The translations under genes and the position numbers were made by a program. The notes under the pieces were generated by a model. It worked only from the letters and a program-made list of their open reading frames with translations. It was not told the origin of the DNA and did no database searches. A stretch of 62,437 nucleotides of DNA, filler included. It is 3 parts of 3 records of this genome, joined end to end, with 100 filler letters (N's around TTAATTAATTAA, not from the genome) between each part and the next. Parts side by side here need not be neighbours in the genome. Positions count along the whole stretch, not along the records: positions 1 to 26,918 come from SRR20825019_670; 2 more parts are not named here. One strand, written 5' to 3'. Positions within the stretch are counted from its first letter, which is position 1. The number at the start of each line of letters is the position of its first letter. Below, one piece after another: positions 7,035 to 55,266 of this stretch.

Positions 7035-10000
7035 ATGGTGAACTGGGTGAAGAAGGTCGGCATCGCCGCTGGCCTCCGGACTCCAAAGCCCGCTAAGAAT
7101 GGTGTCCCGCCTGCACAGGACCATCCCAAGCCGACCGAGACCCCTAGCAAGCGGCCGGCGTCGTTTGCGACGTCGGTGCAAGACGCCATCAACAGGCAGG
7201 TCAATGAGAGCGGAGGCACTGGAATGGTTTCCCATGTCTGTCTATTTGCTGTGGAAAAGTTCTCCAAAGAGGTCGGTAGTGCTCATATGTGCGACCCCCG
7301 GGTTCAATGTGACTAATGGCACTCAATGCAGGCGGAGAACCTCCTGCACTCGGGGGCAAAGTTTGTTGACAACGAGGGGGAGAAGAAACTCGGCCCCCCC
7401 ATAAAACACATGAGCGCCCTCTCACGTGACTGCGCCGCAGGGTATGTTGTATTGCGAGTTCAGTTGGGCTGCGTTCCGTTCTGTGGATGTTGGGTGTGTG
7501 CACGTCAGGCGGACAAGGGCGGCGCTGACCTCATCACAGATTGCTGGCGGGTCTTGTGGCATGGTTCCGGAACAAGGAGGCCGCAACGACGGAGAAGCGA
7601 CTCCTCGGGGATCTGTTTGGGCTGGCGATCCTCGGCCTAATGGACACGGGTCTATTCCTTCCACATGCCCCGGACGTCTCAAGCCTCACGACCGATATTC
7701 GCCTGATTGCCCTCAACAGCATCCTGGTCTCGTATGGGGAGGGCGCCGACAAGAAGGGAAGCGCTGCCGGTGACTTGATGCCCATGAGCCGAGTGGTTGC
7801 GCGGATGGCAGCGATGGACTTCCAGCGGACGATGGAGGCGGTGAGGATGCAGCTCGATAGCCGGCTTGAGAGTGATCGGCGCGGGCACGCCAAGGACGCA
7901 CAGGCCCTCGTGCAGAGCCTTCATAACCTCGTCGTTCCGATGAACACCAGTGCCGAGGAGGAGGTGTTCACTCGCTTCCTTGAGGATCTGTCCAAGATGA
8001 TTGGCCGGGCGCACCTGCGCGAGGTCAAGCAGGAACTGGGCGCCCTCGCCCGCAGCCTCCTTGCCTGCAACGCCGTCGTCCCGCGCGATGCGGAGCACGG
8101 TGGCGATTCCCGTCGCGGTCAGAGCATTCAGTATGCAGTGAGAAATCTTTATACACGGGCGGAGGAGGATCTTTCATCCCGTTGTCCCGGGCACGGCCAC
8201 GCGCTGATGGCTGCCTGCGCCGCTGTGATGTCACACCAGGAGTTCCTCGAGCGCAAGCCCGAGTTGTTCAGGCGACTTTTTAGGGACATCCGCGATGATC
8301 GCAGCAAGGAGGTCGTTTCGATGGCCCTGCAGTCACTGTCACTCATCGTCCGCGGCCAGTACAGGTCCGAGGAGCGGCGATCTGGTGTCAGGGCCGAGGT
8401 CGGTTTTAATGATGTTGCACGTGAAATTGTCAACCAGATCATCTGGACGGTGCCTGCAGCGGCGGGAGGGCCGGCCGAGCGGCGTGGCCCTAGCGGTGCG
8501 TGTCTTGATGACGCCGTTGCGCTCTTGTGCGAGCTCGCAGATCTTGATGTGGACATTGTCATGAACGAGGTCGTTATCTCAGTCCTGCGTGACGCCGCCG
8601 CCGAACAGACCATCGGGATTAGTCCCGGGCACCACTACGGGTATCAAGAAGTCCATGTTGACAAGGATAAGGAAGACCAAAGCAGCCCAGCCCGCGTGAA
8701 AATGTTTAGTGATCTTACGGTTGTAGCTGTTCGCACCCTTTGCGAAGTGACCAGGCGGTTCAAGGCCCAGAGCGACAAGTTTTCCCGCGGGCTTTCTTCT
8801 CGCCCCCGAAGCCACATTGTACCTATGGAGATCTCACGGCACACGTCCACCATTACGGGTCTGCTGGGCACGGTGCTGAGATCGTGCGAGAAGTCCCTCG
8901 ATTCCATGATACTCACGGTCGGGAATGAGCGGAACTCGATGACAGATGAACAGCTCGCCGATATTGGTACCAAGGAAAGCGTAGCCACCAACATCCTGCT
9001 TGCCGGCCTGCAGTGCGTCCACTGGTTTGAGCCGGCCAACACCGAGAATGGGTTCTCCACGGAAGCGCTTCTCAATGTGATCTGCCGCTGCTGCATGCAC
9101 ATTTGCACTAGCATCAGCGATAGGGCCATTGAGCTCCTCAAGTATCTCCCGGCGTCACGGCCCGACCGAGTCGGCAGTGCTCTGGTTGCGATCACGCAGT
9201 TCTTGGCCACTATCCCAGATGACGCGCGGCATTCCCGCGTCGTTCAATTCTTTGAGAGCATGGAGAAAATGCTGCTGGGGTGGAGCGAGTATGAGATTCG
9301 TCTTGGCCGGTCGCAGTTCAATCCATTGCGCGGCCTTGAGGCGGCCATGTTGCCGTGGTTGTGCAGTGGCTTCATTCCCCTACGCAGAGCTGTGATGGGG
9401 TGTTATCAGGCCATCACACACCTCGTGGCCTCCACGGTCAACCACGACGGATCACCCATGAAGGTCGCGTCCGAGGAGGCGATCGTTCGGTCTCAGAAGC
9501 GCGAGGCTCAGATCACCGTCCCAGCCGATTCGGTGGGTCACCTGATGGACATTCTCTCTCGCGATCTGGTTGTCAAGACCGCTACAGTATACTCATGGCA
9601 GAAGCCATCTTGTTTCACGAGTTACGCCGACGAGACCCAGGAGGAGCGCGGGCTGGCCGACCCACCAGAGTCCGGCAATGCCGGCACGGCGGGGGGCCCG
9701 CGCGCCACGGTCAGTGTCACTCTGGAGGAACTCTGTGCTGCGGAGGACCCAGACAAGCAGCTGTGGTGGAGCCGGGCCCTGGGCGAGCTGATGAAGGCCC
9801 TTTCTGCGCACAAGACCTTCAAGGAAGTGGTTGCCGTGGGCATGTCGGAGCTCCACCGACGTCTCAAGAAAACAAGCTCGCTGGTGAGGCCTGACTATCG
9901 TCGCGGTGCCGACAAGCACGCTCCCCCATCCGATGCCGCCATCGTGCTGTACCACTACTGGCTCAATCTTGCGATGGCGTGCTGCTGCTCACTCAGCAAG

Positions 10001-13000
10001 ACATTGAACAAGGACCCTACGAGCCTCTTCCCCCTCTCTGCCCACGACCTCTTGGACACGGTCATCTCGTCTGGCCTCAAGCACGATTGGGACATCGTGC
10101 GTCTGGGAGCGTGCGAGGCTCTGGGGGCCGTGGCGGGCTCCGGGGTGGAGGTGCTGCTCGATCTTCTTGCCGGACTCGAAGACGACAGCCGCACGGAAGT
10201 CGAGTTAGCGCAGCAGGCGGTGCAGGCCGGCAAGGTCGTTGCCCGCAAGGAGAAGAGGTTTCTGTGCCCTCTACTGGTATATGTATATCGCCTTCTGACA
10301 GACCGCTCCCGGGACCCCGCCTCCGCGCTCCCCAACAAGACAAAGGTGTACCAAAAATCCACAGTGATGATCGAGGATGGCTACAAGTTCTTTAACGTGA
10401 TGGGCATGGAGGAGCAGAATATGCGCCTTTCTGTCTTCGGGTCGTCGCATGACGTCGAGTTCATGCGGTTCAATTACAGCCAGCTGGTCGAGAATCACGC
10501 CACGTCGGTGTACCGCGATGTCGGCAAGGATCACTTCCATCCGTCTGTCCGTCACAGGGTCTTCCTACAGCTGCGCCAATGGATTGGCCAAGAAAATTCA
10601 AGTGGTTCCCACTCACCCTCGGGGCCCAACCAGGCGTTTTTGGCTCTACAGCCTGTGCCGCTCCACCTCGCGGCAATGTCATCGATGTCAGCGCTTCTCG
10701 CGGGCCCATATTTCACGGACGAGGCGGTCGTTAAGAAGGGCTCTGGCATCGTCATATCGTGGCTGTCACAGATGTTCAAGATGCAGAGTACCGGTCGGAT
10801 ACGCCAAATATCCTGGGTGGCCCTGTCCAATCTGCTACGCGACAACAAGAACCTTCTGCTCATGTGCCTCGACAAATGTTACGACCACGATAGCAGGGTG
10901 GCCCAGGGCTTCTTCGAGGTCTTTGTCGGTTTTGTGATTCATGAAGATGCTCGCGTCCCGGAGCCTCTCCTCCTCCATGCCTGCCTGTACAAGGCAACCG
11001 ACCGATGCTCCACCGTGCGGGGCACAGCCATCCGCCTTCTCAGGTACTTATGGCCGCGACTGCACACACCGAAGATCAAGAAAGAGATTCTGGAAACAAA
11101 GATGCAGTGGGTGTGCTACCGCCCCAACAAACTACAAAAGAGCAAGAGGAAGGGCGGCGAAGCCGGCAGCGTGGATATGAATGAGGCCATGCCAAACGCC
11201 TTGTTCGTCTCGCAAGAGACTTTCTCTCGTGTTCTGGCCACCGTGTTCCCCCAGTGGACATGTGCATTGATTGGGGAGACCGACAGGCGCCTGAAGCTGA
11301 TCCACCCCGAGAAGAAGGCCCATGCACTCAACTACCTGCTGCCATGGACGAAAAACATCAGCTTCTGCACGGCCAAGCCCAATGACACCGAGCAAAAGAA
11401 GCGCCTGATACACGACATTGGCGAAAGTGTGATGAACACGCTGCTGCGGATGTCGGCGTCGATGATTGAGGTCAATGGCTCCCAGATTGGGGAGATATGG
11501 CGGGCCATTGCTGGCTCCGGCAAACACAACAACATCAAATTTGTCATCGACTTTTTGATCCTTAAGACCCAATACATACAGAGGGAGAAGCCACACGCGC
11601 TGGCCAACCACATCTCGCTTATGCGGCGGGTGGTCGGGTTCTTTGCCATGGAGGATGATGAGAAGACCATATCGCATCTGGCTAAGCTGCTAGTGATTGG
11701 CTCTGTGAGCCGCCAGGAAGAGAAAGAGAATATTGATGAAGAGTATGAGAAGATTCGCACCAAACCGAAGCTGACTTCTGGGGGCCGCATCAAGACACGC
11801 TTCGATATGAAGAAATTGAAGCAAGTTGCCGAGCGGGAGAGGGCAATCGGAAAAATTGGAGTCGACTCCAAAGAAAAGCAGAGGGAGGAGCGCAAGAGCG
11901 GGTTCCTATCCGGACTGGTGAAGGGGATTGGTGGAGGAATCTTTGGAGGTGGCGACAAGGGCGACAAGGCCCCGAGCAAGCGGGCCAAGCCGAGCGTGTT
12001 CGGAAACTTGGTCAACAACATGATCGGCCCCTCGAATATCAAGATCGGAGACGACGACACCACGTCAATGGACAAGGAGCCACTCAGGAAGACCCACATT
12101 GCGATGATCATGATCTCGGAGCTTCCTATAGAGAAGCCAGAGCTCTTCAGCGCATACCCAGTCCCCATGCTGCATCTTGCCGTGCTGTATTGCGACCACC
12201 CGAACCCGACGGTTTCCACCCACGCGAAACTCCTCCTGTCCGCCCTGCTTCAAGCGTCTGTGCTGGGAAATGTCAGCGGGGTGAAGGCCGACAAGGACGT
12301 GCGAGCCAGGGCCTTGGAGGTCATATCATACCTTCAGGCCTCTGAGCGCCGGCCGTTGTGGCAGCGCCAGCATCTTACACTGGGCCTCCGGCGCCGCGAC
12401 ATGAATAGTGTCCATGAGGTTGGAGGCTTGGTAAGCTCCGTCATCGCGTGCGTGCCCAAGTCTCGCCAGATGAGGCTGCGATGGCAGTCGCATGCCCTGC
12501 GATGGGCAGAAGAGACGTCGGTGGAGAGCCTCGCCGGCCGGTCCCTCCACATATTCTCGGCTCTTGATCCCCAGGTTGACCCGGAGTACCTATCCCGCAT
12601 CCTCGGCCGAATTTCCGCCATTATCGAGAATGTAATATCCGACACTTCGGCCACTAAGGGTGCCCTCCCAGCCGCGATGCAAAGTGCTCTCCTCGAGTGC
12701 TATGAGACTCTGGACGAGATGATAGACTCCAGTCCCGAGAGAGGAGAGGCGCGCGCCCTTCCATTCCTGTTTGCGGCCATGATGGCCCTCTTCAAGTCTC
12801 ACGACCCCGTGGTGGTGGAGGGCGCAGCGATGGTGACCAATCGCATAGTTTCTATGATGGACATGAGGCGGATGGAGGTCCAGAACTCGCTCCTGGCCCG
12901 CATACCCCGAACCTGGACGTGGTTCGAGGGCATTCTACCACTGCTTATCAATGCTCTCAGCGCCTCTGAAATTGGTGCACGGCTGTGCTGCGAGATTATG

Positions 13001-14149
13001 ATTGACATCTGCAGCGCCGATGTGAAGCCAGAGCTGTGCGACCGGGACACGGTTATGTGCCAAATCAAAATGGTGATTGCGCTCTTGCCCGCCATGTGTG
13101 AGTACTTGGAGTGCGAGTCCCGCGACACCCACCACCTGGGTGAGAGGCTGCCTCAAGGCCTTGCGCGCGCCCTGGAGAAATCCGGCAACAACCGTCTGGC
13201 GCGGGTACTGGAGAGGTGCTGTGAGACTGAGAGAGACCACATCGGATCTTCATCAGTCCTTCTCACCGACTTTGTCGAGATTTTCGCCGAACTGTATCTG
13301 CCGACCAACGTCAATACGGTGCTGGACATCTTGTTGCCACTTGTGGAGCGCGGTCCAAGATCGCTGGGCCATCACGCCCTAATGGTCCTTGCGGCTATGC
13401 TTACGGCCATCAAGGCCAAGAAGGAGAGGATCTCCAACGATGAGGGTTCAAGACTCATGGACTGCATGAAGAAAGCCGAAGCTCATGACCCGTCGCTCGT
13501 GGGCTCCGTCCTGGGTCTTGTGGTCCACCTGGCTCCGTCCGCATCAGCGGACGCAGTGCTCCCCGCCCGAGTCTCCAATACCCTTGCCAATGAAGAGGCA
13601 ATCCAGGCTCTTAACCAGGTTATTGAGGTGATAGATATCTCCCTTGGAGACGGACGGCCAAGGTCCGTCAGGGCGACCACCGGAACTTCATCCACGAGCC
13701 CGCGAGGGATGCGCGATGTGTCCAACTCACTGAACGTCCCAGACGCGTCCCTGGAGAAGCGGTCGACAAACAGGTATAGGAAACAGGCACCCGAATCTCT
13801 CCACATTCCTGGAGGAGGAGCAGCGGCCACCCCCGTCCCCACCGGGTCCCCGCACTCGTCGTACATCGGAACGACTCCGTCCATTTGGAACCAGTCCGTT
13901 CCCAATTCGGCGTCCACCATTCCGCAGGATGTGATGAACCACTATATGTCCAGGGGCACCACGCCCGCGAGCACGCCGGGTTGGGGCACCCCCGCGGCAG
14001 GCGGGTACATGACACCCTCGATGAATGCCGGTGGTTATCAGGCCAGCAAGGACAACTCGGGGTATGCCACGCCCGCCGGGATGAGCATTGATGAGGATGC
14101 AGTGTACCCCCACATGCAGATCACACCCAAGGAGCTGGAGGTAAGATGA
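7035..14149 (+). CDS. FRY: Furry / MOR2-PAG1 (Tao3) cell morphogenesis scaffold protein; 3 exons
   Basis: About 2300-aa helical-repeat protein. ATG 7035, introns 7272-7331 and 7442-7539, then a 6.6-kb exon. Furry-like motifs 'LNYLLPWTKNI', 'MLHLAVLYCDHPNPTVSTHAKLLL', 'PLWQRQ', 'RWQSHALRWAEETSVESLAGRSLHIFSAL'. Confidence 0.82.
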
Positions 14150-15067: not shown

Positions 15068-17330
15068 ATGAACGGCGCAGACACCAAGAATAGGCAGGGG
15101 TACGGGTTCCAAAACGACTCTCCCTATGCGTATTTGCACTCTCCTTCCAGTTCGGTTTATGGCGGGACAAGCGCCTTCCCGGAGACAAACCCGGTGCTGT
15201 ACAACCCACCCTCCAGCGGCAGCACCGCCACTAGCGCTCTACTGAGCCCGCATGGTGTTCCCCACAACGGAGGCCACGCGCGGAGCCATGGTCCTCCGAG
15301 TGCAGGCAGCTCGATTGCGAGCATGAACTCGTTTATCAGCAGTGCGTGGGAGAGCGAAGACAACGTTCGCGTCGTGGTCCGTGTGCGCCCGCTGCTTAAC
15401 TATGAGATGGAGAAGGGGTATTATAAGGTGATGGATTGCGTGGACGATGGTCGCTCCGTTACTGTGCAGAACGCCACAAACTCCAAAGCAGCAAGAAGCT
15501 CGTTCACCTTCTCCGCCACGATTGGCGAGCAAGCGGACCAGCAAACGTTCTTTGAAATGTCCGGCGTGAAACACCTGCTGCTGTCGGCATTGGATGGGTA
15601 CTCTGCTACGGTGTTCGCGTATGGTCAGACAGGGTCCGGTAAGACGTTCAGTATATCGGGGCCGGAGGAGCAGGTGGTCAACGAAGACTTCAAGGGCCAT
15701 GACCTGGACGGTATGATTCCGCGGGCAGTCCGGTTTATGTTTGATCAGATGGCCCAGGAGACGGCGCAGTTCAAGACTCAGTACAAGGTTCGCGCGAGCT
15801 ACCTTGAGATATATAACGAGCAGATCAATGATCTGCTGTCGATGACTTCGGAGAATCTCGCCATTCGCTGGAATAGCAGTATTGGCTTTTTCGTGGAAGG
15901 GCTGGTGGTGGCGGACTGCCTCGAGTACAACGACGTGATCGCGGTTTTCTGTGAGGGCCTGAGGAACAGAAAGGTGGGGTCCCACGACCTGAACAAGGAC
16001 TCAAGCCGCAGTCACAGCATTATGACGGTGTACCTCGATAGCGAGACGACCGAGTCTGATGGGACCGTCCTGACTAGGTACGGTAAGGTCTCGTTTGTGG
16101 ACCTGGCTGGTAGCGAGAAGCTGAAGGAGTCCAAGTCCGAGGGGTCCACGCGCAAGGAGACGGCCCAGATCAACAAGTCACTGTTCGCTCTCGGCAACGT
16201 TATTGCAGCCCTGAGCAGCTCCAAGAAGAACCAGCACGTGCCCTACCGCGATAGTAAGCTGACCAAACTTCTTATGGACAGCCTCGGGGGCTCGAGCCTT
16301 ACGCTGATGGTTGCATGCTGCAGCCCGGCGTCACACCACGTCGAGGAGACGCTGAACACCCTATACTATGCCGGTCGGGCCAAGAGCATTCGCAACCAGC
16401 CGATTGTCCAGATGGACCAGCATCAAGAGGTGGTCATGCGGCTCAAGAAGGAGGTTCAGATGCTGAGGCTGGAGAACGCCTATCTCCGCCAGCAGTTAGG
16501 CATGCCGGCGGCCTCGACTCCGGGCAGTGTCAACACTACCTACCAGCTCTTTCAGAACCCTTCTCCGCGCAACTTCACACCTCCGTACCACTCCGGGTCC
16601 AACTCGGTTAGGAGGCGCGACGCGAAGCCCGCCGGCGCGCCGCTGCCTCCGCTGGAGATGCCGGGGAGCAACACGAATGAGTTCATCAACGAGAATGGAA
16701 GGTTGAGGGGGGAGAACACCAATATCGTTAGGAGGCTGGAGGTGGTAGAGAAGGAGTACGTGGCAGTCATGGCAGAGAATGAGAGGTGAGCGGGTTGTAC
16801 CGGTCGCGGGCTGGGTGTGGGCTGACCAGTGTTGTACAGGCTGCGGTCCAAACTTGAGGGATTGGAGGATATCTTTGTAAAGAAGGGCGAGGACGAGGAA
16901 TGGGGTCTGAGTCCCCGCAACAGGGCCAAGGGTAGGTTTCTTAGCCGCGCTCGCTAAGTTCTGTATTTCTGCGGATTCTAATGCTGGTTGTGGTGCAGGG
17001 GGCACTTCCGACGGGATTGAAGGGACGGACATTGCCGGTGATGACCAGTTTGAGATGATGAAGGTGGAGAATCGGCGCCTCAAACGGCAGATCGACAAGA
17101 TGAACGAAGAGAATGCGGAGCTGCAGAGCCAGCTTCACAAGTTGCAGCTGGCCCGGTCGAAGCAGGGTATCAAGAATTATGGGAGCGTGAGGAAGGAACA
17201 GAATGATCTCTTTGCCCTTCGCAAGTCCAATGATCAGCTTGTGAAGAAGTGCGAGTCAATTAGCCAGCGGGAGAAGTTGTTGGCGCAGCTGCTGGAGGAA
17301 AATGGAATCGAGGTTCCTCCGAAAGAGTAG
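15068..17330 (+). CDS. Kinesin motor protein (N-terminal motor, coiled-coil tail; KIF12/kinesin-16-like); 3 exons
   Basis: 'VRVVVRVRP', P-loop 'AYGQTGSGKT', switch I 'SSRSHS', switch II 'DLAGSE', 'HVPYRDSKLTKLL'. Introns 16786-16839 and 16932-16998. Stop TAG 17328-17330. The subfamily call is tentative. Confidence 0.93.
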
Positions 17331-17484: not shown

Positions 17485-20400
17485 TCATTGACTTATCCAA
17501 CTGCTCGGCCTGTGGTCATTGCCTGATGAGAAATCACTGGAAGCCGACAGGGTCGAGTTCGATTGCGGCTGGTCGGGCTTGAATAGCCGCTCCATAAGCA
17601 TTTGCTGCATATTGAGCGTATTGGAGACCAGGACCCCGCTTGCATTGCGGCTATGGGTGCGGCTGTGCGGCCGGCTTCGTGACCCGGACCTACTGCTAGA
17701 ATGGCTCCTCGCTGAGAGGGCGTCGCCGCTGCTGCTCATGAGGCTGAATGACGTCGCCGGGCGGCTACGCCCCGGCAGCATTCCCTTCGGGGTGCCCGGG
17801 AAGCACATCACGGCTGCAGTGCTGGGGCGCGCGCCGGGGTCGAAGTCACCTAACATCGTATCCTGCCTGATAATACTGTAAGGGAGAAGGGTTAGCGGGA
17901 ATGATTCCGGCATCAGCATGGCAGACTCACCTCGGCCTCAACTGCTCGCCACCTTGGCCCATCTCCTGGTCCACCTTGTCCAATGCCTCCGCGAGACCCT
18001 CCGTCTTCTTCTTTTTGTGAATGAAAAAGTCGCTCTCGGATTGGCCACCAATGGACTTTCCATATACACCGGAGCGGTAGCCAAGGTCACCATAATGCTT
18101 CTCGAGATTACTTTTCTTTTTCTGCTTGGAAGGGCTTAGGAGTCGATCGCCTGGTATCCGCATAGGCCCCAACTTGTCATCATTCGGGTCCGAAGCGAGC
18201 CTCTCGGTCGGGGACGGTGATATTGTCATGGGCGCCACCAGCAGCCCTGTCGTGTATTGCTGGCTCCGCCTTGTGCGCTTGCCATGAGTGGATGCGGGAA
18301 TGGACGGCTATGGATGAGGTGTTAGGCGGAGCGACGTCATGACACAGACCCACAACTTACCAGATTGCCTACGACGGCATTCGCCTCGTTGCTCCTGCGG
18401 GCCTTCTGATCGTAGTAATCACGGAGCGACTCGGCCCGATTCAGCATAGTCTCTTTCCTCAAAAGTGGCGACAGTTGCCTGGCGCGGCGCTGTGCCTTGC
18501 TCTCGTCAGGGCGTGGTTTGCTCAGGCCATCCAAAAACATGGCGAGTTGGTTTGCATCCAAACCCTCCATGGAGTCCTGCTTCTCCAGCGGGGTGTGTGA
18601 ATCGCTATCCATGAATTGAGAAGACACGACGGGCACCCGGGAGGGAAGGTCGGAGCCATCGCCAAGATTCATCATCGCGAGCGACCCCCTCCGTGACCTG
18701 GCCTTGCCCATTGAAGTGGATCTCGAGTCCTTGTTGGCTCTTGGGTCATGGTCGAGGCCTCCTGCATTGGCTAGGAGCATCTCAATCCCAGCCCGCGTTG
18801 CCTCGAGGGACTCTCCTGCTCGACTTTGCCTCCTTCCCAACGCACCTGGGTTTGTCATCAACGTGTTGACACTGTGCCTCCTTGAATCATCCTTTGGCAC
18901 CATTCCAACGGACGCCCGCCGCTGATCCGCCTGCGACTGTCGCCGCCTATCACTGACTCGCAATGCAGGAGTGCTTCCCCGGCGAACCTCATCCTGGATT
19001 ACGCGACTGGTGCGTCTGCTGGCATTGCGCGAGGGAGAGCGAGAATTGCTCCGTGAGTGGCCCCGTGAGCCCGTTTTGAGGGAGTCCACGTCACTTCCTG
19101 AAATATCGTCCAGGCTCCGGTCGGATTCTGATCCGTGCGATAGTGTCTTCATGCTTCCAAGTGGGGCGCCCACTGACCGCATGCTCTGTGATCTGTTTGG
19201 CCAAAATGTTAGATGTCTTCTCCCGCATTCGCGCAACACCCGGCCCAAGACCCAAATACTCACATCGATGTACCCCGATCCGATATATTCGTCAGAGTTC
19301 GCTTATGCTTCCCGCTAGATGCTCCCACCTCATAAGAATCCATGATCTTATGGTGGTATATGTCAAAGTCGTGTGCTAGGACATGGTCGAGTTCATTCCA
19401 CGCACTTCGGCTAAGTGACTCCCTCCTCAGCCGGTACCATGGTGTGCGGTTCTCTTCGTGTTCATCTATCAGGGACAAGTCCGGGTCAACACCCGGCGTC
19501 CTCCACATCTTGGGCTTGTTTTCTCCGCTGAGATTCTCACTCCGGAACATCGCCAATAGAGGCGGCGCCTGGGGGGACGGATGTGACTCCAGACACCGTG
19601 CGAGTAGTTTCCGAGATCCGGCGAAGATGCAGTGCTTCCTAGCAGAGCTTATGGCCCGATAAATATGTGTGACATCCACTTTTGCCTTGGTTCTGTCGAA
19701 GAATGACGGGTCGATGTGTATCACCACGATGTCGACCTTGTGGAGGTCATACTCAGAGACAGTCTTCAGATCAATGTACATGTGCGGTATCAAGTCGCTT
19801 CTCGCCACATTCACAGGGGTCTTGTCAACAGGGGATGTCACAACCAGTTGCGCTGCGTCCACTGCTGTTCCATCCTTCCTCAGAACCATGATCCGCCTCT
19901 CCTTCTTCCAAAACACAAGGGTACCCTTTTTGAACAATGCCCGGCGCTGGGTGGGCTTACGGAGCTTCTTCTCATAGGCCTGGAACTTGTCACTCTGCCG
20001 ATTCACCATCACGTGCATGTTGCGAATCGATACATTGGCATCGCTAAGGTTCTGGCTGATAGTGGTGAGGTCATCTTCAGAGAAGCTGAAGGGAGGAATA
20101 TTATCAGGCTCATCTTGTTCGATGGCTTGATATATCCTCTCGTCACACTCTGGTATTTCTTTCACCCAACTCCGTATGAAATCGCTATCTCTCACTGTCG
20201 ATGTGAAGATACCGCTCTTGTCCAGATGTTCCAGAAACGGCGTTTGATGGTTGTCTTTCGTTTTGTTTTGGGAATCTCGGTTCTCGCCATCAATGGACGC
20301 TGTGCTCGTCGCTTGCTCCTTTGCGGCAGAGAGTGACTGGATGAAATCCAGTTTCCCAATTAGCATCACCAAAGTGGAGAAGAACTCTGGTCGGGGGCCC

Positions 20401-22040
20401 TTGTACTTCCCATTTTCTATGATCGCGTTGGGATAGTGCTGCTTGAATGTGTCGCCAACAAAGAGTACTGCCTTCAGGTACATGATGCAGCGAAAGAGCC
20501 CTATGGTAATATGCTCGATTACTAGCTCGTCGGAATTGAGGAAAACGACCACGCTTAGATCTGCCATCACATCCTGCTGCGCGTTTGCAAACTGGGATTC
20601 TGTCATACACACCCCATGGAACACCGTGCCGAGTTTTCGGAGATCCGGGGCTCTCACGTCAGGGATTACGTACACCACCGCATCTTGATTCGTTTCATAT
20701 GTCGTCACAGCCGCCTTGACATCGGCGGCCCAGACATGCCAGAACCTCACGTCCAATACGCAATACGCCACCATCTTGTTTTCATTAAGCAGCGATGCGA
20801 ACTTGAGCTGTGGCTCCGCAAAGGTGAATATGCCCAGGCAGTCGTCCACTTGTAAAAGGAGATCATGGTGTCTTACCAACATATCCAGGGCCTGTTCAGT
20901 TCCTGTGGGGTTGGTGACACCTATCGTTTCCATGATGTGCTTGAACGGAAGCATCACTGTTCCTTCGTTGAGGAAGCTGTCCTCAAGTGCATGCAAGATG
21001 GATATCGCGCCGATGACCATGGGCTGATTGTACATGCTTTGGTCCAGGGGCACGTACATCTGCAGGCGTTTTAGAAGGAGCTCCAGGCGGCTGATGTACA
21101 TTCGATTGCGGGCGACCGCGTTCTCGAACGGGGCATGGATAAGCTGAGGCACAATGCCAACTTCTTTCAACACCAGTGGGCTCAGAAGAAGGAAGGGGTA
21201 CTTCAAGAGAATCGAGCTGGCCTTTTCAAACTTGTCGGAGAATGTTAGAAGAAGGTGCTCCCGGTGTGACCCACCCCCGGGCGCGTACGCGTTCAGCAGC
21301 GACCGCATGATCAGTGCCCTATCGCTGTAGAAGACTCCATCCAGAAGGCTCATTCTAATGATGTCTTCCTCTCTCTTGTTCCCAATCTTCATCCCTCGAT
21401 ATCCGTTTGCGGTCAGCAGCTCTGTCGGGGATTGTTCCTTCCCAGTGGTGAACTTTATGAACTGCACAACCCTAGGGTCCCCACCCGCCTCCACCAACCT
21501 CGCGTTCAACTCCACGATAGGGATAGGAAGCCGACGGGCTGCGATTATCTTTGTCACATACACATCCACGTTGGCCGACTGGTGCCGTGCCTCCACGTGA
21601 GACCCTCCCAGTTCATATTCTATTTTCCATTCGAAAAATGGAGACACGCTGGGAAACACTTGCTCGTTAATGATACGCAGCTTCTCGTGTTCAATACGCG
21701 ACCCTTGCTCTGAGTGAAACACCAGGTGACTAATCTGGTCATTGCTGAATATTCCCCCGAGTCTTCCCCTCGCCACGTTCACTGTGTTAGTCCGTTTGAT
21801 GGGCTCGTCCATGCCATAGTCCAGAAGCCCAAAATACGTATCATAGTCGTGGTCAGTAAACCCGCTCTCTGCGAAAAACAGCTCTTTAAACTGATCTGTC
21901 GTCAAATCTCGATAGTCAGCCGTTGCGCAAGCTGACTCTACGCTGATGATAGAGCCATGACTCAACTCTGGTAGACTAAAGTTTGAGTTAGTCCCCATTT
22001 TCATGGCGCCGATATCGCCTGAAATCGTCCGGGTTTTCAT
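17485..22040 (-). CDS. RecD2/HELB-like SF1B helicase homolog with degenerate ATPase motifs and a long Ser/Arg-rich disordered C-terminal tail; 4 exons
   Basis: ATG 22040. Introns 19193-19263, 18308-18360 and 17876-17930 join ORFs 19260-22040, 18337-19263, 17927-18238 and 17485-17919. RecD2-like segments occur in the correct order: 'LLKYPFLLL', 'NEGTVMLP', 'VLFVGDTFKQHYP', 'FKKGTLVFWKK', 'HIYRAISSARKHCIFAGSRKLL'. Confidence 0.65.
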
Positions 22041-22820: not shown

Positions 22821-25800
22821 TCAGATTCCGGTGCTAATTGCAGCCGAGGATATGCTAGCAATGCCTCTAGCAGTATTCATACGGCGTTTGCTTTTCCGCC
22901 CTGTTCCAGGAGTGCCGATGGGGGACCCCTCTGGCATATCGAATCCAGCAAGAAGATCCTCCATTAGCTTCGCCTCAATACGCATACGCTCAGCAAAGTA
23001 CATGTTGTCATCCAGCTGCTTCTTTCCGAAAACGAGCTTGAAATATTTGTCGATAACTTCCGAAAATAGTACAATGTTCTCCATGCTTTCCAGAGATTCG
23101 GCAGTTACGTTGCGTCCGCCATAATAAATAGCGGTGCGACACACTGCCTCGATGAAATCTTCAAAGCAAAGCTCCATTTTTCGGTCCAGAATCTCACCCT
23201 CCGTTTTTTCTTTTAGTGTTATTGCCACGCGAGTTCGGAGCATTGTGTCTTGGCATTCACAGATGCCAATGTGGTCGCACTCGGTCTGGATCCATGTTCC
23301 CATGCACGTTCTGTAGAACTGCCTGGTGGCCAGCTGCTTGGGCAAATAGTCTTTGTGAATCAGTCTCCTCTCTTCCAGGAGCTCGAGGAACTCCTCAAGA
23401 GAAACTGTGTCCAGATGAAGGTTATCGTATTCAGAGGTGTGCCGCCGCCTGCAGGTCTCATTGAAGACGAATCGCGACACCTTTTCGTGTTTCTTGATAA
23501 CAGTCTGCGTATCAGGTGAGCACAAATACTTGTAAAACTCTCTCTGGTCCTCGATCTTCTTAGCCTTGGGCACGAGGTGGTTCTCCAGGACAAGCCGGTA
23601 GCACTCGGCGGTTGACTTGGTCTGCTCCCAGTACTTTTCAATGGAATAGAGAGCAAGGCAAGCAGCCATCTCATGTGTATCGAGGAAGTCATCCGAGGTC
23701 GTCAGCTCCGCCACCTCCTCAATATCCGCCCCCTCCGCGAATGTGGTTCCACGGCACGTGGTCACAAATGCCAATGTTGCTTGAGGAACATCTACTGATA
23801 CTCCCCCAAACTGCCTGGCGCCCAGCAGGCCGGTGGCCTCCAAGAGTTTCCTAAAGGCGCGCATGTTCATCAGGGGCTCAATATCTCTCTCCACAACTGG
23901 GTCATCCACACAGTAATATTGGTGTATGTGCCTGAGGTCATAGAAGTACTTGCGTGTGAGGCGGCATATCTTCTCTCTCTCGGCCTCGCGGTCGTCTTGT
24001 GCATCCATTTTCCACATCGCCGTGTAAAAGTTGATGTAATTGATCGCGTGGTGGCCGTATGACTTGGCCAGGCGGCCGTTGGGCTTGGCTGCCTTGGCCT
24101 TGGCTATCGGCGCCTCGCCAATGGCCAGGGGCACCTCGAGGTCATTGCTGCTACCGAAGCCCTTGTACTTGACGTAGAGTCTATTCTCACCCTCGTCCAC
24201 GTCACGGAGTTTCGCCTCGATGCATCTCCCGGGAGCGCGGTAAGTGATCTCATGGGCCTCCTTACCCCCGACGACAACCATGAGCTTGTCGGGTTCTGTT
24301 CCAAGGAATTGCCCATAGATGACGATGTGAAGCTTTCGCTCCGAGGTAAACGGCTCTGGAACATGGTAGCTCTCCAGGACTGGCGTACAGTACTCCATTC
24401 TTGCACACGCCACATTGGCAGACATGCAGCCCCCAAGCTGCACGTTGACATTGACGATGGTGTTAGGCTTCCCGGGAGGCGTGACGCACAACACTGCCGT
24501 TGCGTTGATAATGGTGACCTCTGTGGCCTCATTCTCCCCAACAAATACTTTCGTCTGGTTGGGCAGGCTGGGATCGCCGAGGTTGGAACCGCGGATGACT
24601 AAGCCAGTTCCACCCTCGAATGAGCCCTGAACGATAGGGATGTACTTGTCCTTTTGTTGCAAAACCTCGGCCATTCCTCCTTTGTACCTCTCGGGGTGAC
24701 CATGGGACCCTGTTGCCGCAACAGTCATCACGCACGGCCGGACCCCAACTTTTTGGAATTCCCGTTGATTCTTGTACTCACGGATAGACCGGCGGAACAC
24801 CTCATCCATCGTCTTATTGTGAGGGTGCTCCTCAAGTCCTTCCATGCTCGTCGTCGCTGCCTCCAAGACGTTGCCCATGCGAAGATCAGTCACGGACTTT
24901 GTTGCAAAGCCGCCGGGGCAAAGTGGATCTATGTCCAAGGCGATATTCGCATCCTCGTTACTGTTTTCAATGTCATTTCTCGCCAGCCGTGTCTGGGCCC
25001 TCCGCACGAACAATTTTGCCATGGGTATGTCCACGATTGCCCGGCTCGATATCTTCGCCGTCTTTGGCGGTGACGGTGACGACCGGTGACTCTCGATCGC
25101 TTTCGTGAGTCTTTTCTCGGCCTTCTCATAGTCTCCCTTCGCATGATGCTTGATCCCTCTGCGCGCAATGCTGCGTACCATTTCAGTGCACTCCAACTCG
25201 CGCCGCTTCCCGGAAGAAACAGCGTGGTTGAACTTTTTGAAGAACTGCATTTCACTCTCCGTGTCTCGGGTCTCAGCTCCGGGTGCGGTGGCCGGACGGT
25301 TCAATTCCATCTCTGTCCCAGCGGCCTGTTTTGCTGCCATGATTTTCTGCTGTGTCTCGGAGAAATATACGGTTTTGGGCCGCGTTCCCTCCTCAAACGG
25401 AAGCTCCGTCGACCTCCTGGAATAATTTGGCGTCGGAGGGACTCGATGCGCCTTCTCACTTGCCCTGCGCTCCTCTGGGGACATCTGCAGCTCGGCCGGA
25501 GTCACGCGCACAGCCGGCATCTTCTGTGGCACGACGGTGCTCCCCCGGCGCCTCCCTTGCGCCGTGCTCCCTCGCGAAGAGCACACACTCCGGCCACTGA
25601 CAGTTCCTGATGTATGGGGGCGGCTCATGTCTGCCGGAGTTACTGGAAGACCGATAAGCTGTTTTCCCATCTCCAGGATATCTTCGTCAACATTCTCGAA
25701 AGGATTGTAGCGCGGCGCCGAGTGCAGTTCCCCTTCCGCGTTAGGCTCGCTTGATGCGCGATCCAGATTGTCATCATAGAACAAGTCCTTGAAGCCAACA

Positions 25801-26691
25801 CTCGCCGTACTCGTGGGTGCCTTTGGTTTCGAGCGGGGGGACGGGCCGGACGGTGGCTGGGGCCTCCCGGCAGGCGGCGCCGGTACCACCTCGTCTCCAC
25901 TTCGAAAGCTGCTGTTGTCAAGGTTAAAGCCCTCTCCACGGAAACTGGAGTTCTCCCCTCGCACGCCTGGTTGCGACGGGGCTAAGCTGGGGCTGCCAGC
26001 CATGTCCTTGTCCATGGCCATTGACTTTTGCCTCTGAAGGTGGAAATACTGTGAGCCCCCGCTCCCAATGACATATGGCGTTTTGGCGTCCCGCAGGTAC
26101 TTTTGCCGCCCGCTCTGCAAGACTAGGGAGGAGTTAGTTTGACAACAATCCAGCCTTCAAGTAGATGCCCTTACCCTTGCTGGAGCTGCGGCTGGGGAGA
26201 AGCGTCGGCGTGACGTCGCCCAGCTCAGTCTGACCAATGGACCTGCCCGCCGCCTTCTCCGGTGCCTTCTCCGTGCCTACCCGTGACGTTGCTGACACTG
26301 CTGGACGGTCTGTGGTCAGATCACACCGGGTCTCCACCAGATATCGAGAATAATATTGCTTACATGAAAGGGTGCTGGATCCCATTCCCATTAACTTCTT
26401 GCGCTCTTTGCTCCGCTTGGCATTTCTTCGCTTCATCTTCAGCAGTTCACCCTCACGACAGTTACCAAACAAGAGCGGGTCATCCAGGAGGTCGTTCTCC
26501 AGTTGCGCGGACTCCTCCTCCGAGAAGCACCCCATGGCAACGATTGGCCACGTCGGTTTGTATCTACTCGTCTCAACAACTCTCAGAGTATCCATGGGTA
26601 GTGCCGCCGTCGGAAATGTCTCCTTCTCGTAGTAGACATTGAGGTTTACCACGGGCTGGCCCAGGCCTGTCGCGTCGGGCTTTTCTGGCAT
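22821..26691 (-). CDS. Large protein with TPR repeats, IPT/TIG domains and a C-terminal EF-hand-like helical domain; multi-exon
   Basis: TPR-like 'RGIKHHAKGDYEKAEKRLTKAIE...LFVRRAQTRL...DANIALDIDP'. IPT-like 'GSFEGGTGLVIRGSNLG...VFVGEN...VLCVTPPG'. C-terminal 'ELCFEDFIEAVCRTA'. Introns at 26310-26363 and about 26116-26174. Start position uncertain. Confidence 0.7.
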
Positions 26692-26918: not shown

Positions 26919-27018
26919 NNNNNNNNNNNNNNNNNNNNNNNNNNNNNNNNNNNNNNNNNNNNTTAATTAATTAANNNNNNNNNNNNNNNNNNNNNNNNNN
27001 NNNNNNNNNNNNNNNNNN
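26919..27018. other. Artificial contig spacer (44 N + TTAATTAATTAA + 44 N)
   Basis: Exactly 100 nt. The core gives stop codons in all six frames. Gene structure switches from eukaryotic to bacterial across it. Confidence 0.97.
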
Positions 27019-51190: not shown

Positions 51191-51290
51191 NNNNNNNNNN
51201 NNNNNNNNNNNNNNNNNNNNNNNNNNNNNNNNNNTTAATTAATTAANNNNNNNNNNNNNNNNNNNNNNNNNNNNNNNNNNNNNNNNNNNN
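51191..51290. other. Artificial contig spacer (44 N + TTAATTAATTAA + 44 N)
   Basis: Identical in structure to the first spacer. Sequence switches from bacterial back to eukaryotic across it. Confidence 0.97.
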
Positions 51291-51629: not shown

Positions 51630-54600
51630 ATGTTTTCGGGTGACGTTGATGACCATGAAAGCAAGTCAATCACCACCGGCGCCGCCCTCTCGGCGGACGC
51701 CACGGCCCCGGCTCCGTCAGGAGTTGTGGACGAGCCCCCTCCGATGAAGAAAGTCGGCGCGGGAGCAGGCTCCTCTGGGGCTGATATGTGGATAGCCAAT
51801 GATGGGACGTTGCATATGGGAAAAGTTGGCATGTTTACGGATCAAGGAAAGGGGACCAAGTCACCTCTCAAGAATGCTCTTCAGGTAGGCTGAGGAACAG
51901 ATGGAATATTCTATTCTTTATTAGCGGGTGTTTCTTTCTGCTGTTATTCGTTTTTACGATATTTCTCGTTCATGAGTCATTTCGGGGGGTCACTTTTGTT
52001 TTTACTTCCTCTGTAGTATATCTTGCGGTTGCACTTGCGTTTAAGGGCAGCTTTTATGACATTGGTGTATGTTCGGGAATCAATGGTTTTCACGAATCAA
52101 ACGTCTTCCCGTGGCGTATTGCCGTTCAAGCCGTGCACGTGACGTCGGGTGGCTGACACTGTTGCAGAGCGAGCAAAAGTTACTCGGGGCCGGGGACGAG
52201 ATTGATCCGGCAGGAAAGCCAGAGAACGATATGACGATTGAAGAGGTCAACGAGGACACACGAAACATCACAAACTTTGCGGTGGAAGAGGGTTGCGCCA
52301 AGATTCGACTGCTCCTAGCATCGGTAGAGCAGAATATTAACGATGAATGCGCGCAGTTCACTGGGGTGGTTCGGAAGCTGATACGGGAGCAGCTGCGCCT
52401 GGCCGCGGACCGCAATGAAGATGTTAAAGTTCTCGGTCCTGACATCATTGCCCAGACTGTCTCGGCCGAGATGTCCCGCATGGAGGCGAAGCTCCTCAAG
52501 AAACTTGAGACACAGATGTCCGCGGAACTGCGAGTGATCGGAGACAGTATGTACGATACCCTTCGGGAAAAGAACTATTTTAGTCACTCGAGGGAGAAGG
52601 AGCGTGTGGAATCTGCCCGGAAGGCTGCGGAACAGCAGACTCGTAATCTGGTTGCTATTGAGCGTCACGAGAAACTCCGTGTGATGGCGGAGTACAAGGA
52701 GGTGAAGCGAAGTCTTCAGAATGAAATCAATGACCTGTTGATGCAGCTGGCCACGGCCCAGCAGGCACTCCAGAACCAACTTAATGATATGACGCAGCTG
52801 AACGAGATTGCCCGGCTCAAGTCCGACATTGAGCGCCAGGAGAAGACTGTCCTGGCGAAGGATGAAAGGATATCCAACCTGGAGCAGCTGCTTCAGAATG
52901 TGCAGAGCGAGCTACAGGACGCGTATTCCGCACAGGTTCCGCTTCGTGAAAAGATAGTTGATCTGGAGACAATCATCACCGAGATCAAGGCCGAGTCGCA
53001 ACGACTCCGCGACAACCTGTTCTTTGCCTCTCAGATGATGCAGGGCGGAATTCACGTTTCCCACGGTACCACGGATATAGGCGTCCAGGTGAGACCTCCG
53101 ACAACCACGACAGCGACGGATGTGAACATCTTGGATTTGTATTCCGAGCACCCTCTCTGGACCGAATGTAAGAAGCTTCATGAGGGTATGACCCACCTCC
53201 TCGAGCAGCAGATCGAGATGGATCACCAGATTACGGAGGCGATGGACATGAACCAAGACTTACAAGATGAGCTAGACGACCTGATGGAACAGCACGAGGC
53301 CCTGCTGGAGCGGACCAGTGGCCGCGAGTCCGATCTCGGATCGCGGGGGATCACCGCAGTCAAAGTCTCCAACAGCCGAAATCCTTCTATCAGCGGCGAC
53401 CCATCCCGACCTCCCAGCAGCATGGGCGCGCCTCCAGGGGCCGGTGCTGGGGCCGGTGCGAGCGCAGGTACTGCGACGGGCCCCGGGGCTGGCGGCGGAC
53501 CAAGCCGCGCGGCGTCGCGGACGGTGTCACCCGATCCCAGTAATAGAAGCATCCAGGGCCGATCCCGACCGAACTCGCCGGAGGGGTCTGTTGTTTATGG
53601 TCTTGGAAAGGGCGCGGGGCGGCCGGTTCGCCGTCGGGGAAAGCAGTATGATAAGGAACGTCTGGACATGATTCAGCTGTTGAACGAGCGGCACCAGACG
53701 ATCTCCGAGCTCATGTCTGAGGTGAAGAGGCTGAAGGTGCAGCTTGGTGACTCCGATAAGTATATAACGACATTCATGGGGAACAGCGAGGTCAGGCTGT
53801 CGCGCGACGGTGCGCAGAGCCCGACCGAATGGGAGATGTTGGATCCTGTGTACAGGGTTTCCAAAAAGAGATCATCAGGCTCCACATCGCCCTCTCGGCC
53901 CTCCTCCCGCCAGCAGAGTTCCCGCGCCTCCTCGCGCACTGGAGCAAGGTCGCCCCGCCCACGTTCATCGTCACCCACAACCGGTCGTACAACTCCTGCG
54001 AGCGCTGCCACTGAGCATCGTCCCCCAAGCCGTGTCGCGGTTGAGACCCCGCCGCTCGGAGTGACTGATGCTAGGTCGGAAATGGAAAATCCGGTCAAGT
54101 TACCCCTAAACAATGTTGTCGATGTTGAGATTGAGATGGGCGAGGTCGTGGTGCAGACAGATCGCCCGTCGACATCCATGGGTCTTCGCCCGCCCAGCCG
54201 CGCCAGGGTTGCCCAGAGAGACATCTCCCCCGAGGAAAAGCGGCCGCGGCGCCCCGCCACATCGTTTTCCGGCGCGGATGAAGGGCCCTTCACCGCAAGG
54301 GATGATGGGCCCCACAAGCCAGGGTTCACGTTGTCCCGTGTGCCGAGAGTGCCCCCAGAGCAAATATATGGCCGCCCGCGGGACATTAATCCGCGTCTCA
54401 AGATGTATCTCTACAACCGCGCTGAAGGCACGAACTCTGCGCGTCCACCCTCGAGATCTACCGGAGGTGTGATCTCGTCGCTGAGATCGCAGAGAACGGA
54501 GCCTGTTCTGAGGCAACAAGCTGTCGTGTTACCTCAGGATGCCGCGGTGAAGCTGACGAAGGCATCGACGAAGCCCGGCGCAACGAAAAAACGCGATTTG

Positions 54601-55266
54601 CCGAAGGAAGAACTCCCCAAAAAGAAGACGGAGAAGGGGGTGGGCGCGAATGAGGAGCTGAACCGGATTCTGAAAAGCATTCCGTCTGCACAGGACGGGA
54701 ACACTCCGCGAGAGGCGCGGAAGGGGGCGCAGCTTGGAACGTTCACAATGCCTGCGAGTGCAATGGAGGATGACCTTAATATGGTCAAGAGAGCATTACG
54801 TGACAATACAAATCTCAATGAGAAGGTCATATCCCGTGTCCCGGGCGTCCAGGACCCGCCCCAGCTACCAAAGTACAAGGGGCCTCAGGAGACAGTTATG
54901 TACAAACACTCCAAGCACCCAGAAAGCGCTCAACCGCACATGGATGGGGTTCCTATGGAAGAAATGGATGTGCAGAGAGGTATTGGGCTAACCGTGGAGG
55001 ATTTGATAGGGAAAACTGCAGGGCAGCGGCAGCTGTTCCGTGGTCCCTCTGCAGGCGACGGGGTTACTTTGGAGGAGCGGTATGCGTCCTACTCGCGGTT
55101 GCTCCGCGATGTTGAGAATAGTAGCCATCATATGATGAAAATCTCGAAGCGGAGGGAGGAGGAGACGCGGCGTCGCATCCGAGAGCACCAGGAGAAGATC
55201 AAAAGGCGCGCGAGCTCCAACGCGCTATCCTTACACGGCACCAAGCCAATCCAGCAGGCAGAGTAA
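51630..55266 (+). CDS. Large coiled-coil protein with an S/R/P-rich disordered C-terminal half; 2 exons
   Basis: Exon 1 (51630-51884) joins ORF 52069-55266 in frame via GT-AG intron 51885-52167. Long E/Q/L heptad stretches and many RPxS/T motifs. No family recognised. Confidence 0.75.

Follow-up and report, generated by a model that had tools for sequence, protein, structure and literature searches.

The stretch of DNA analysed here (the window, 62,437 nucleotides) joins three pieces; between them lie N runs, at 26919-27018 and 51191-51290, which occur as paired 44-N runs. The subject of this study is a gene on the minus strand of the first piece (positions 1-26918, from SRR20825019_670), which extends from 22040 down to 17485. 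It is a real, transcribed four-exon gene of a microbial eukaryote and encodes a protein of 1,458 residues. Residues about 708-825 of this protein resemble the C-terminal end of RecD-type helicases of superfamily 1 (SF1), and the explanation favoured here, to which we assign a probability of roughly 0.5, is that this region may derive from such a helicase whose ATP site has been lost. The initial annotation of the locus had proposed more, namely a complete but catalytically dead RecD2/HELB-like pseudo-helicase.

Evidence for the structure of the gene comes from the sequence itself and from X1, a public run of unrecorded kind that is represented here by assembled contigs. Exon 1 (19264..22040; all parts of the gene lie on the minus strand) starts with an ATG at 22040, 15 bases downstream of an in-frame TGA, and holds an intact open reading frame (ORF) of 926 codons (22040..19263), which agrees with the roughly 925 codons reported earlier. 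Its TGA stop codon (19262..19260) sits within the GTGAGT donor of intron 1 (19193..19263, 71 bases), which also displays a CTAAC branch-like site and a CAG acceptor. This first intron is a prediction called from the sequence alone: the bin 19137-19303 is without an X1 contig, and the frame stays open across the joint. Exon 2 (18361..19192), where the Ser/Arg-rich tail of the protein starts, is covered by an X1 contig at 18439-18941. Intron 2 (18308..18360, 53 bases, GT..AG) is excised exactly in an X1 contig, with the joint at 18307/18361 and CT..AC on the plus strand. Exon 3 (17931..18307) is likewise documented by X1 contigs and by the open spliced frame, and intron 3 (17876..17930, 55 bases, GT..AG, with CTAAC ahead of the acceptor) is again excised exactly, the joint being 17875/17931. 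Exon 4 (17485..17875) ends with the stop codon at 17487..17485 and is covered by an X1 contig at 17484-17742.

Since its contigs lack two introns, X1 is read as RNA-derived; on this reading spliced RNA is made from the gene, which at the least exists in spliced form. Over exon 1, X1 contigs extend across 19367-19672, 19716-19946, 19955-20284, 20314-20494 and 20767-20948, and sequencing depth is found in the bin 21308-21474 as well. Removal of all three introns leaves a stop-free frame of 1,458 codons, in which GC makes up 0.63 of third and 0.36 of second codon positions, as coding sequence should show. The earlier statement that the gene is maintained rather than decayed is borne out by the intact spliced frame and the spliced contigs. 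The claim that the ORF is spliced to a Ser/Arg-rich tail holds for introns 2 and 3, which are seen to be removed, and remains a prediction for intron 1, by which exon 1 is joined to the rest.

The similarity to helicases was assessed with hhalign, using the single sequence of the exon 1 product (P0001) as query and a profile (A2) built from 87 aligned RecD-, RecD2- and Dda-type SF1B helicases. A single match was obtained, covering residues 709-819 and 107 columns, with a score of 44.0, a P value of 9.9e-5 and a probability of 58%; the score of 44.0 was reproduced locally. A merged profile of 120 sequences gave nearly the same result (score 43.0, P 1.1e-4, residues 708-825), the alignments spanning 107-114 columns. 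On the DNA this SF1B-similar region corresponds to 19566..19919 (minus strand) and runs from the SH3-like 2B insert through motifs V and VI to the final strand and helix of domain 2A. Full-length shuffles of the protein scored 17.1 +/- 2.6 with a maximum of 25.3, so that none of the 82 reached 44.0, and the reversed sequence scored 17.6. A Gumbel fit to the shuffles, which is an extrapolation, puts P near 1e-6. As further controls, seven more real translated stretches from the window were aligned and scored 12.6-28.7; the highest value belongs to the genuine P-loop of a kinesin aligned on the Walker A columns, and the stretches without a P-loop remained at 12.6-23.5.

The core of the match is a motif VI-like block at residues 791-819 (THIYRAISSARKHCIFAGSRKLLARCLES; 19584..19670, minus strand), in which Y794, A796, A800 and G808 are kept and the position of the family arginine is taken by S799. 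When a self-built hidden Markov model was searched with hmmsearch --max, the whole protein received 4.4 bits and residues 791-819 were its only domain (3.5 bits), a result equalled by 0 of 1000 shuffles. In hhalign, residues 785-835 by themselves reached 32.0 through an alignment over the 27-residue motif VI block, against 11.6 +/- 2.3 for shuffles. The SH3 part alone reached 18.3 (shuffles 12.1 +/- 2.5), which is the same as the best of 30 shuffles (18.3). Of the earlier mapping at this end of the protein, motif VI thus stands clearly, and the FKKGTLV word assigned to the SH3-like insert, together with the motif V stretch, is weak. Judged by these controls the C-terminal resemblance to SF1 helicases is real and is best for RecD-type profiles; as a sequence match it is short and of moderate confidence.

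The residues on which ATP turnover depends can be followed in the same alignment. The pattern [AG]xxxxGK[ST] does not occur in the 1,458 residues and appears within the locus only out of frame or between genes, in line with the absence of Walker A noted before. At motif VI, for which the family consensus is LlYTgiTRAK, the column of the arginine is occupied by S799. At motif V the protein has TVSEYDLHK where the family has TVHKSQGSE, with the H, K, Q and G replaced; motif V had been called lost, and degenerate is the better wording, as the two words align with each other. Going by the alignment, every ATP-binding or hydrolysis residue that can be placed is missing or replaced, and the region, if it is helicase-derived, is not a canonical ATPase.

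One out-of-frame word deserved separate attention. GPGYVGKT, a perfect Walker-A-like word, is encoded at 20869..20892 (minus strand), roughly at the place where the P-loop would be expected, and scores +10.1 bits on the Walker A columns of the family. TGA codons flank it at 20898..20896 and 20865..20863, ten codons apart, so that two frameshifts within about 30 bases would be needed to read it, and across it the RNA-like X1 contig 20767-20948 matches the DNA base for base, with no gap. For these reasons the word is not a recoverable P-loop and was rejected as a candidate for one. The reading that it would need also provides no hydrophobic strand ahead of the word. When the ORF was re-coded synonymously, 13 of 5000 versions contained a Walker-A-like word in the same 100-codon interval. 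The word is either a product of chance or the fossil of a P-loop left by a compensated frameshift.

Upstream of the matched region the picture is different. All the strings cited by the initial annotation are present in the protein, at residues 278-286, 348-365, 409-415, 456-464, 497-506, 525-537, 703-709 and 792-809, that is, between residues 278 and 809. Their proposed mapping, in order, onto the whole RecD2/HELB scaffold was not supported, the N-terminal, Q, Ia, II and III assignments being at chance level in five separate tests. A chain of position-specific scoring matrices (PSSMs) for Q+I, Ia, Ib, II, III and IV scored 15.6 on residues 1-708, compared with 11.4 +/- 5.8 for shuffles, and was equalled by 75 of 300 of them; without the Walker A block and with spacings derived from the family, 267 of 500 shuffles were as high. 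Neither chain landed on the positions proposed earlier. When hhalign was run with sub-profiles of the RecD2 N-terminal domain, 1A and the first half of 2A, the real score was reached by 34, 3, 19, 10 and 29 of 40 shuffles. Residues 200-440 aligned to RecD2 columns 100-335 (the N-terminal helical/HhH domain with the ENPY and GHxYLP words) scored 12.4, a value equalled by 34 of 40 shuffles.

The most suggestive upstream stretch comprises residues 497-537 (VVVFLNSDEL ... VLFVGDTFKQ; 20430..20552, minus strand), a candidate Walker B-to-motif III segment that is not significant. It was the top local alignment in both 1A tests, in which 10 and 3 of 40 shuffles scored at least as high. In this alignment N502-S503 take the place of the family D-E and G529-D530 that of the family G-D, and the fixed 27-residue spacing of the family is kept. 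As an ungapped II-III block the segment ranked 2nd and 1st among about 900 positions, yet 350 of 2000 and 748 of 2000 shuffles reached the score; moreover, the rank is not independent evidence because the strings had been chosen by eye for their resemblance to the motifs. A UvrD/PcrA profile found its best match at residues 413-480, on the motif Ia/Ib region (24.9, P 0.057). An alternative placement with Ia at 404-421 and Ib at 469-478 fell below random chains and was rejected. A complete pseudo-helicase core is possible and unproven.

Searches of curated families and large collections characterised the protein as an orphan. With the 926-residue product of exon 1, no Pfam family was obtained at E <= 1. 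When four segments were searched at E <= 10, three remained empty and one returned only the unrelated GST_N_4 (E 0.2; 12.8 bits, the cut-off being 30). PADLOC gave no match, NCBIfam none at E <= 10, PHROGs only unnamed families at E 0.02-0.18, and the PDB sequences contained no match to the protein. An exhaustive phmmer search of 1.84 billion representative proteins yielded 0 homologues, a word-seeded search in which 8000 candidates were scored gave none at E <= 0.001, and of 59 pattern matches in JGI metagenome contigs zero could be confirmed as relatives. Eukaryote proteomes do sit in the searched collection, in which relatives of the neighbouring kinesin were found, yet no homologue of the studied protein appeared; it is therefore lineage-restricted or very fast-evolving.

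Structure prediction and language-model features were consulted as additional sources. In a second AlphaFold2 model, residues 790-832 were the only ones to reach a predicted local distance difference test (pLDDT) score of 60-74. They were modelled as helix-strand-helix, as expected after motif V, and were preceded by five short strands at 708-744, all at low confidence. Foldseek retrieved nothing at E <= 0.001 with the model of residues 596-835; the matches to proteasome ATPases, methyltransferases and others (E >= 0.018, template modelling score 0.12-0.21) are meaningless. With Atlas language-model features of the whole protein, 10 of 10 named top matches belonged to AAA_30/UvrD_C_2/TraI families (0.82-0.86). 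With residues 250-700, from which the matched C-terminus is left out, TraI helicase-associated clusters came first at 0.80 and were accompanied by AAA_30/AAA_19 (0.78-0.80).

Several observations weigh against descent from a helicase. About three quarters of the hhalign score come from one 27-residue block, and the probability reported by hhalign is only 56-60%, with a single sequence as query. A RecD2-only profile (33 sequences) gave a P value of 0.0038 (score 34.1, residues 770-830), and a TraI-type profile (10 sequences, for the helicase-associated domain of PF22232-bearing proteins) was not significant (15.9, P 0.61). An Upf1-like profile (13 sequences) also matched motifs V-VI (28.1, P 0.019, residues 752-815), and the helicase subfamily is therefore not settled. 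The N-terminal domain, 1A and the first half of 2A gave no signal above chance. No curated family model (Pfam, PHROGs, PADLOC, NCBIfam) and no PDB sequence matched, and the searches provided no orthologue for conservation testing. AlphaFold2 models built without an alignment had low pLDDT values (32.9 for the 926 residues and 41.7 for residues 596-835). Atlas values of 0.8 are also obtained with a third of shuffled proteins, so that its features are a lead and not a test. X1 and the window differ at six bases, of which four are non-synonymous (N451S, I541M, T760A and D1123N) and two synonymous; this shows no sign of strong purifying selection, the number being tiny and each difference coming from one low-depth contig.

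These points are best weighed together with the competing explanations. If there were no helicase ancestry at all, the protein would be a lineage-specific orphan with another or a new fold, and the resemblance would be due to chance or to a convergent strand-helix-strand-helix unit. Zero matches to family models, a signal packed in 27 residues with an hhalign probability of 56-60%, five tests on the first two thirds of the proposed core that all ended at chance level, and Atlas values (0.78-0.86) inside the stated noise range of the tool all speak for this explanation. It has to account, however, for a P value of about 1e-4 obtained with a family that had been named beforehand, for a score about 10 standard deviations above shuffles and above the real-protein controls, and for a match whose position, where the ordered region ends, is the homologous one and which stays collinear through the motif V and SH3 columns. 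It also has to account for the agreement of an independent method, Atlas, which pointed to the same superfamily with two query ranges. On balance we hold the absence of ancestry to be less likely than not. At the other extreme, residues about 280-830 could form a complete, ATP-dead RecD2/HELB-type core that has stayed recognisable only at its end. Upstream of the C-terminal match the protein offers about 700 residues and the family about 430 columns; residues 497-537 fall on Walker B-motif III at family spacing, the UvrD match at 413-480 is collinear with them, and Atlas on 250-700 gives AAA_30 and TraI helicase-associated clusters. None of these points is significant, however, and the positions were picked by eye. 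The sub-profile of the RecD2 N-terminal domain was beaten by 34 of 40 shuffles, and the best placement of motif Ia found here (404-421) differs from the one originally proposed (456-464). A complete core of this extent is accordingly regarded as a tentative alternative with the odds against it. The estimates for ancestry, for a complete dead core and for no ancestry overlap with one another.

Upf1-like helicases (SF1, AAA_12) are the commonest SF1 group in eukaryotes, and a remnant from one of them, rather than from a RecD/RecD2/HELB-type enzyme, would be consistent with the match of the 13-sequence profile to residues 752-815 over motifs V-VI (28.1, P 0.019). The RecD-type profiles scored higher (44.0, 43.0 and 34.1), a comparison that is not strictly valid with profiles of different depth, and they reach through the SH3-like insert. 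This origin appears improbable. Pfam AAA_12 (PF13087) gave no match. Lastly, the locus might be decaying or non-functional, or might encode an active ATPase in which recoding or editing at GPGYVGKT brings the P-loop back. The ratio of non-synonymous to synonymous variants (4 to 2) and the location of the Walker-A-like word near the expected P-loop place, where 13 of 5000 re-codings give one, could be taken in this sense. Both versions conflict with the intact frame of 1,458 codons and its correct splicing, with the stops that bracket the word and the two frameshifts required within about 30 bases, and with the identical, gap-free X1 contig, and are considered very improbable.

In the explanation favoured here, the protein would be composed of an ordered region of about 830 residues, a linker and the 532-residue Ser/Arg tail. 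Residues about 708-825 would descend from the C-terminal end of a RecD-type SF1 helicase and would take in a small 2B insert rich in beta structure, motifs V and VI, and the final strand and helix of the RecA-like domain 2A. Canonical ATP-driven motor action would be impossible for such a protein. The module 708-825, and possibly the whole of 390-830, may have been retained to bind, with no turnover of ATP, single-stranded nucleic acid or a protein partner, and the Ser/Arg tail would supply phospho-regulated contacts of low specificity. The helicase ancestry of residues 390-708, the binding of nucleic acids and the regulation by the tail are steps that we infer. In its most far-reaching form the proposal would make residues about 390-830 a complete RecD2-like SF1B core that is ATP-dead, has no active partner domain and acts as a phosphorylation-controlled clamp on single-stranded DNA or RNA, in what would be a new lineage-specific family; this form is speculative and quite unlikely.

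The tail, encoded by exons 2-4, accounts for 532 residues with 16% Ser, 11% Arg and 30 SR/RS dipeptides, and is probably disordered. Seven RRx[ST] sites are found in it, compared with one in the 926 residues of exon 1; the RRx[ST] and SR sites of the tail are presumably sites for basophilic kinases and SR kinases, respectively. In its 30 SR/RS dipeptides and seven RRx[ST] sites the tail is like those of RS-domain (SR-like) proteins, from which the studied protein differs in having no RRM or other RNA-binding domain in a Pfam scan. A coronavirus nucleocapsid model was matched below cut-off (E 0.04) by the Ser/Arg-rich residues 67-121 of the exon 4 ORF, a match that would be compositional. An X1 contig carries a 15-base (five-codon) in-frame insertion in the tail, behind 18550, which points to a length polymorphism of the tail between strains or alleles.

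Comparison with known systems helps to place the protein. With RecD/RecD2/Dda-type SF1B helicases (AAA_30 PF13604, UvrD_C_2 PF13538, RecD2 TIGR01448) it shares a region, residues 708-825, that is collinear with the 2B insert, motifs V and VI and the end of 2A, and Y794, A796, A800 and G808 agree with the motif VI consensus of the family. It differs from these enzymes in that PF13604, PF13538 and TIGR01448 are not matched, Walker A is absent, the motif VI Arg is replaced by Ser and motif V is degenerate. In addition, it is about twice as long, carries the 532-residue Ser/Arg tail, is eukaryotic and spliced, and has no recognisable N-terminal domain or 1A. As no model matches, no Walker A is present and motifs V and VI are degenerate, the protein should not be filed in the RecD/RecD2 family.

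Among kinases, and among some helicases such as TraI, it is well known that dead enzymes can serve as binding modules, and the protein is similar in kind to the ATP-dead helicase-like modules described so far. Another dead helicase module reused for binding is the second cassette of Brr2. RecC and AddB are ATP-dead SF1-like subunits of the bacterial RecBCD and AddAB nuclease complexes, in which they act as scaffolds for DNA binding and recognition; the likeness to these bacterial nuclease-complex subunits is one of kind and of description only. Human HELB, likened here by description only, is a eukaryotic RecD2-like SF1B helicase, and is described as an active, processive ATP-driven motor. The vestigial helicase domain of F-plasmid TraI is RecD2-like SF1B, lacks some regions required for the ATP and DNA sites and serves as a single-stranded DNA-binding domain (PMC5422253). 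This domain is the working model for the studied protein, the Atlas lead at 0.80 being the only support from sequence features. In TraI the dead domain is located beside an active one in the same chain, whereas the studied protein has no active domain. A literature search at listing level returned no free-standing ATP-dead RecD-type eukaryotic protein and none described in a protist. A full core, if true, would represent a free-standing eukaryotic counterpart of the TraI vestigial domain. It would give a measure of the drift that an SF1B motor can undergo with its frame intact, and it would offer a handle on the nucleic-acid biology of a protist lineage without a sequenced close relative. The evidence as it stands carries only a short helicase-derived remnant.

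The first piece of the window (1-26918) is eukaryotic and contains genes for a ZIP transporter, a MOR2/PAG1-type protein, a kinesin, the studied protein and an IPT/TIG protein. The KIF12-type kinesin gene (15068-17330, plus strand) is convergent with the studied gene, the two stop codons being 155 bases apart; an intron probably separates its ORFs 15068-16789 and 17055-17330. Its relatives are EukProt, MMETSP, oomycete, ciliate, algal and animal proteins, all with an identity of at most 58%. The best of them are spread over very different eukaryote groups, so no close relative of the organism has been sequenced. Upstream of the studied gene lies an ORF of 1,099 codons (22821-26120, minus strand) with two IPT/TIG domains, a weak TPR signal and no other family match. 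An ORF of 2,202 codons at 7541-14149 (plus strand) encodes the central and C-terminal regions of MOR2/PAG1 (Furry-type cell morphogenesis) in one uninterrupted frame. The third piece contains an ORF of 1,065 codons (52069-55266, plus strand) without a Pfam family at E <= 1e-5. The second piece consists of bacterial operons, with densely packed genes at 27925-50324 and a GC content of about 0.63. Among them are an ABC transporter ATPase and permease, a SorC-type regulator, a DAO protein like glycerol-3-phosphate oxidases/dehydrogenases, an FGGY kinase, a GMC oxidoreductase and an HlyD and AcrB efflux pair.

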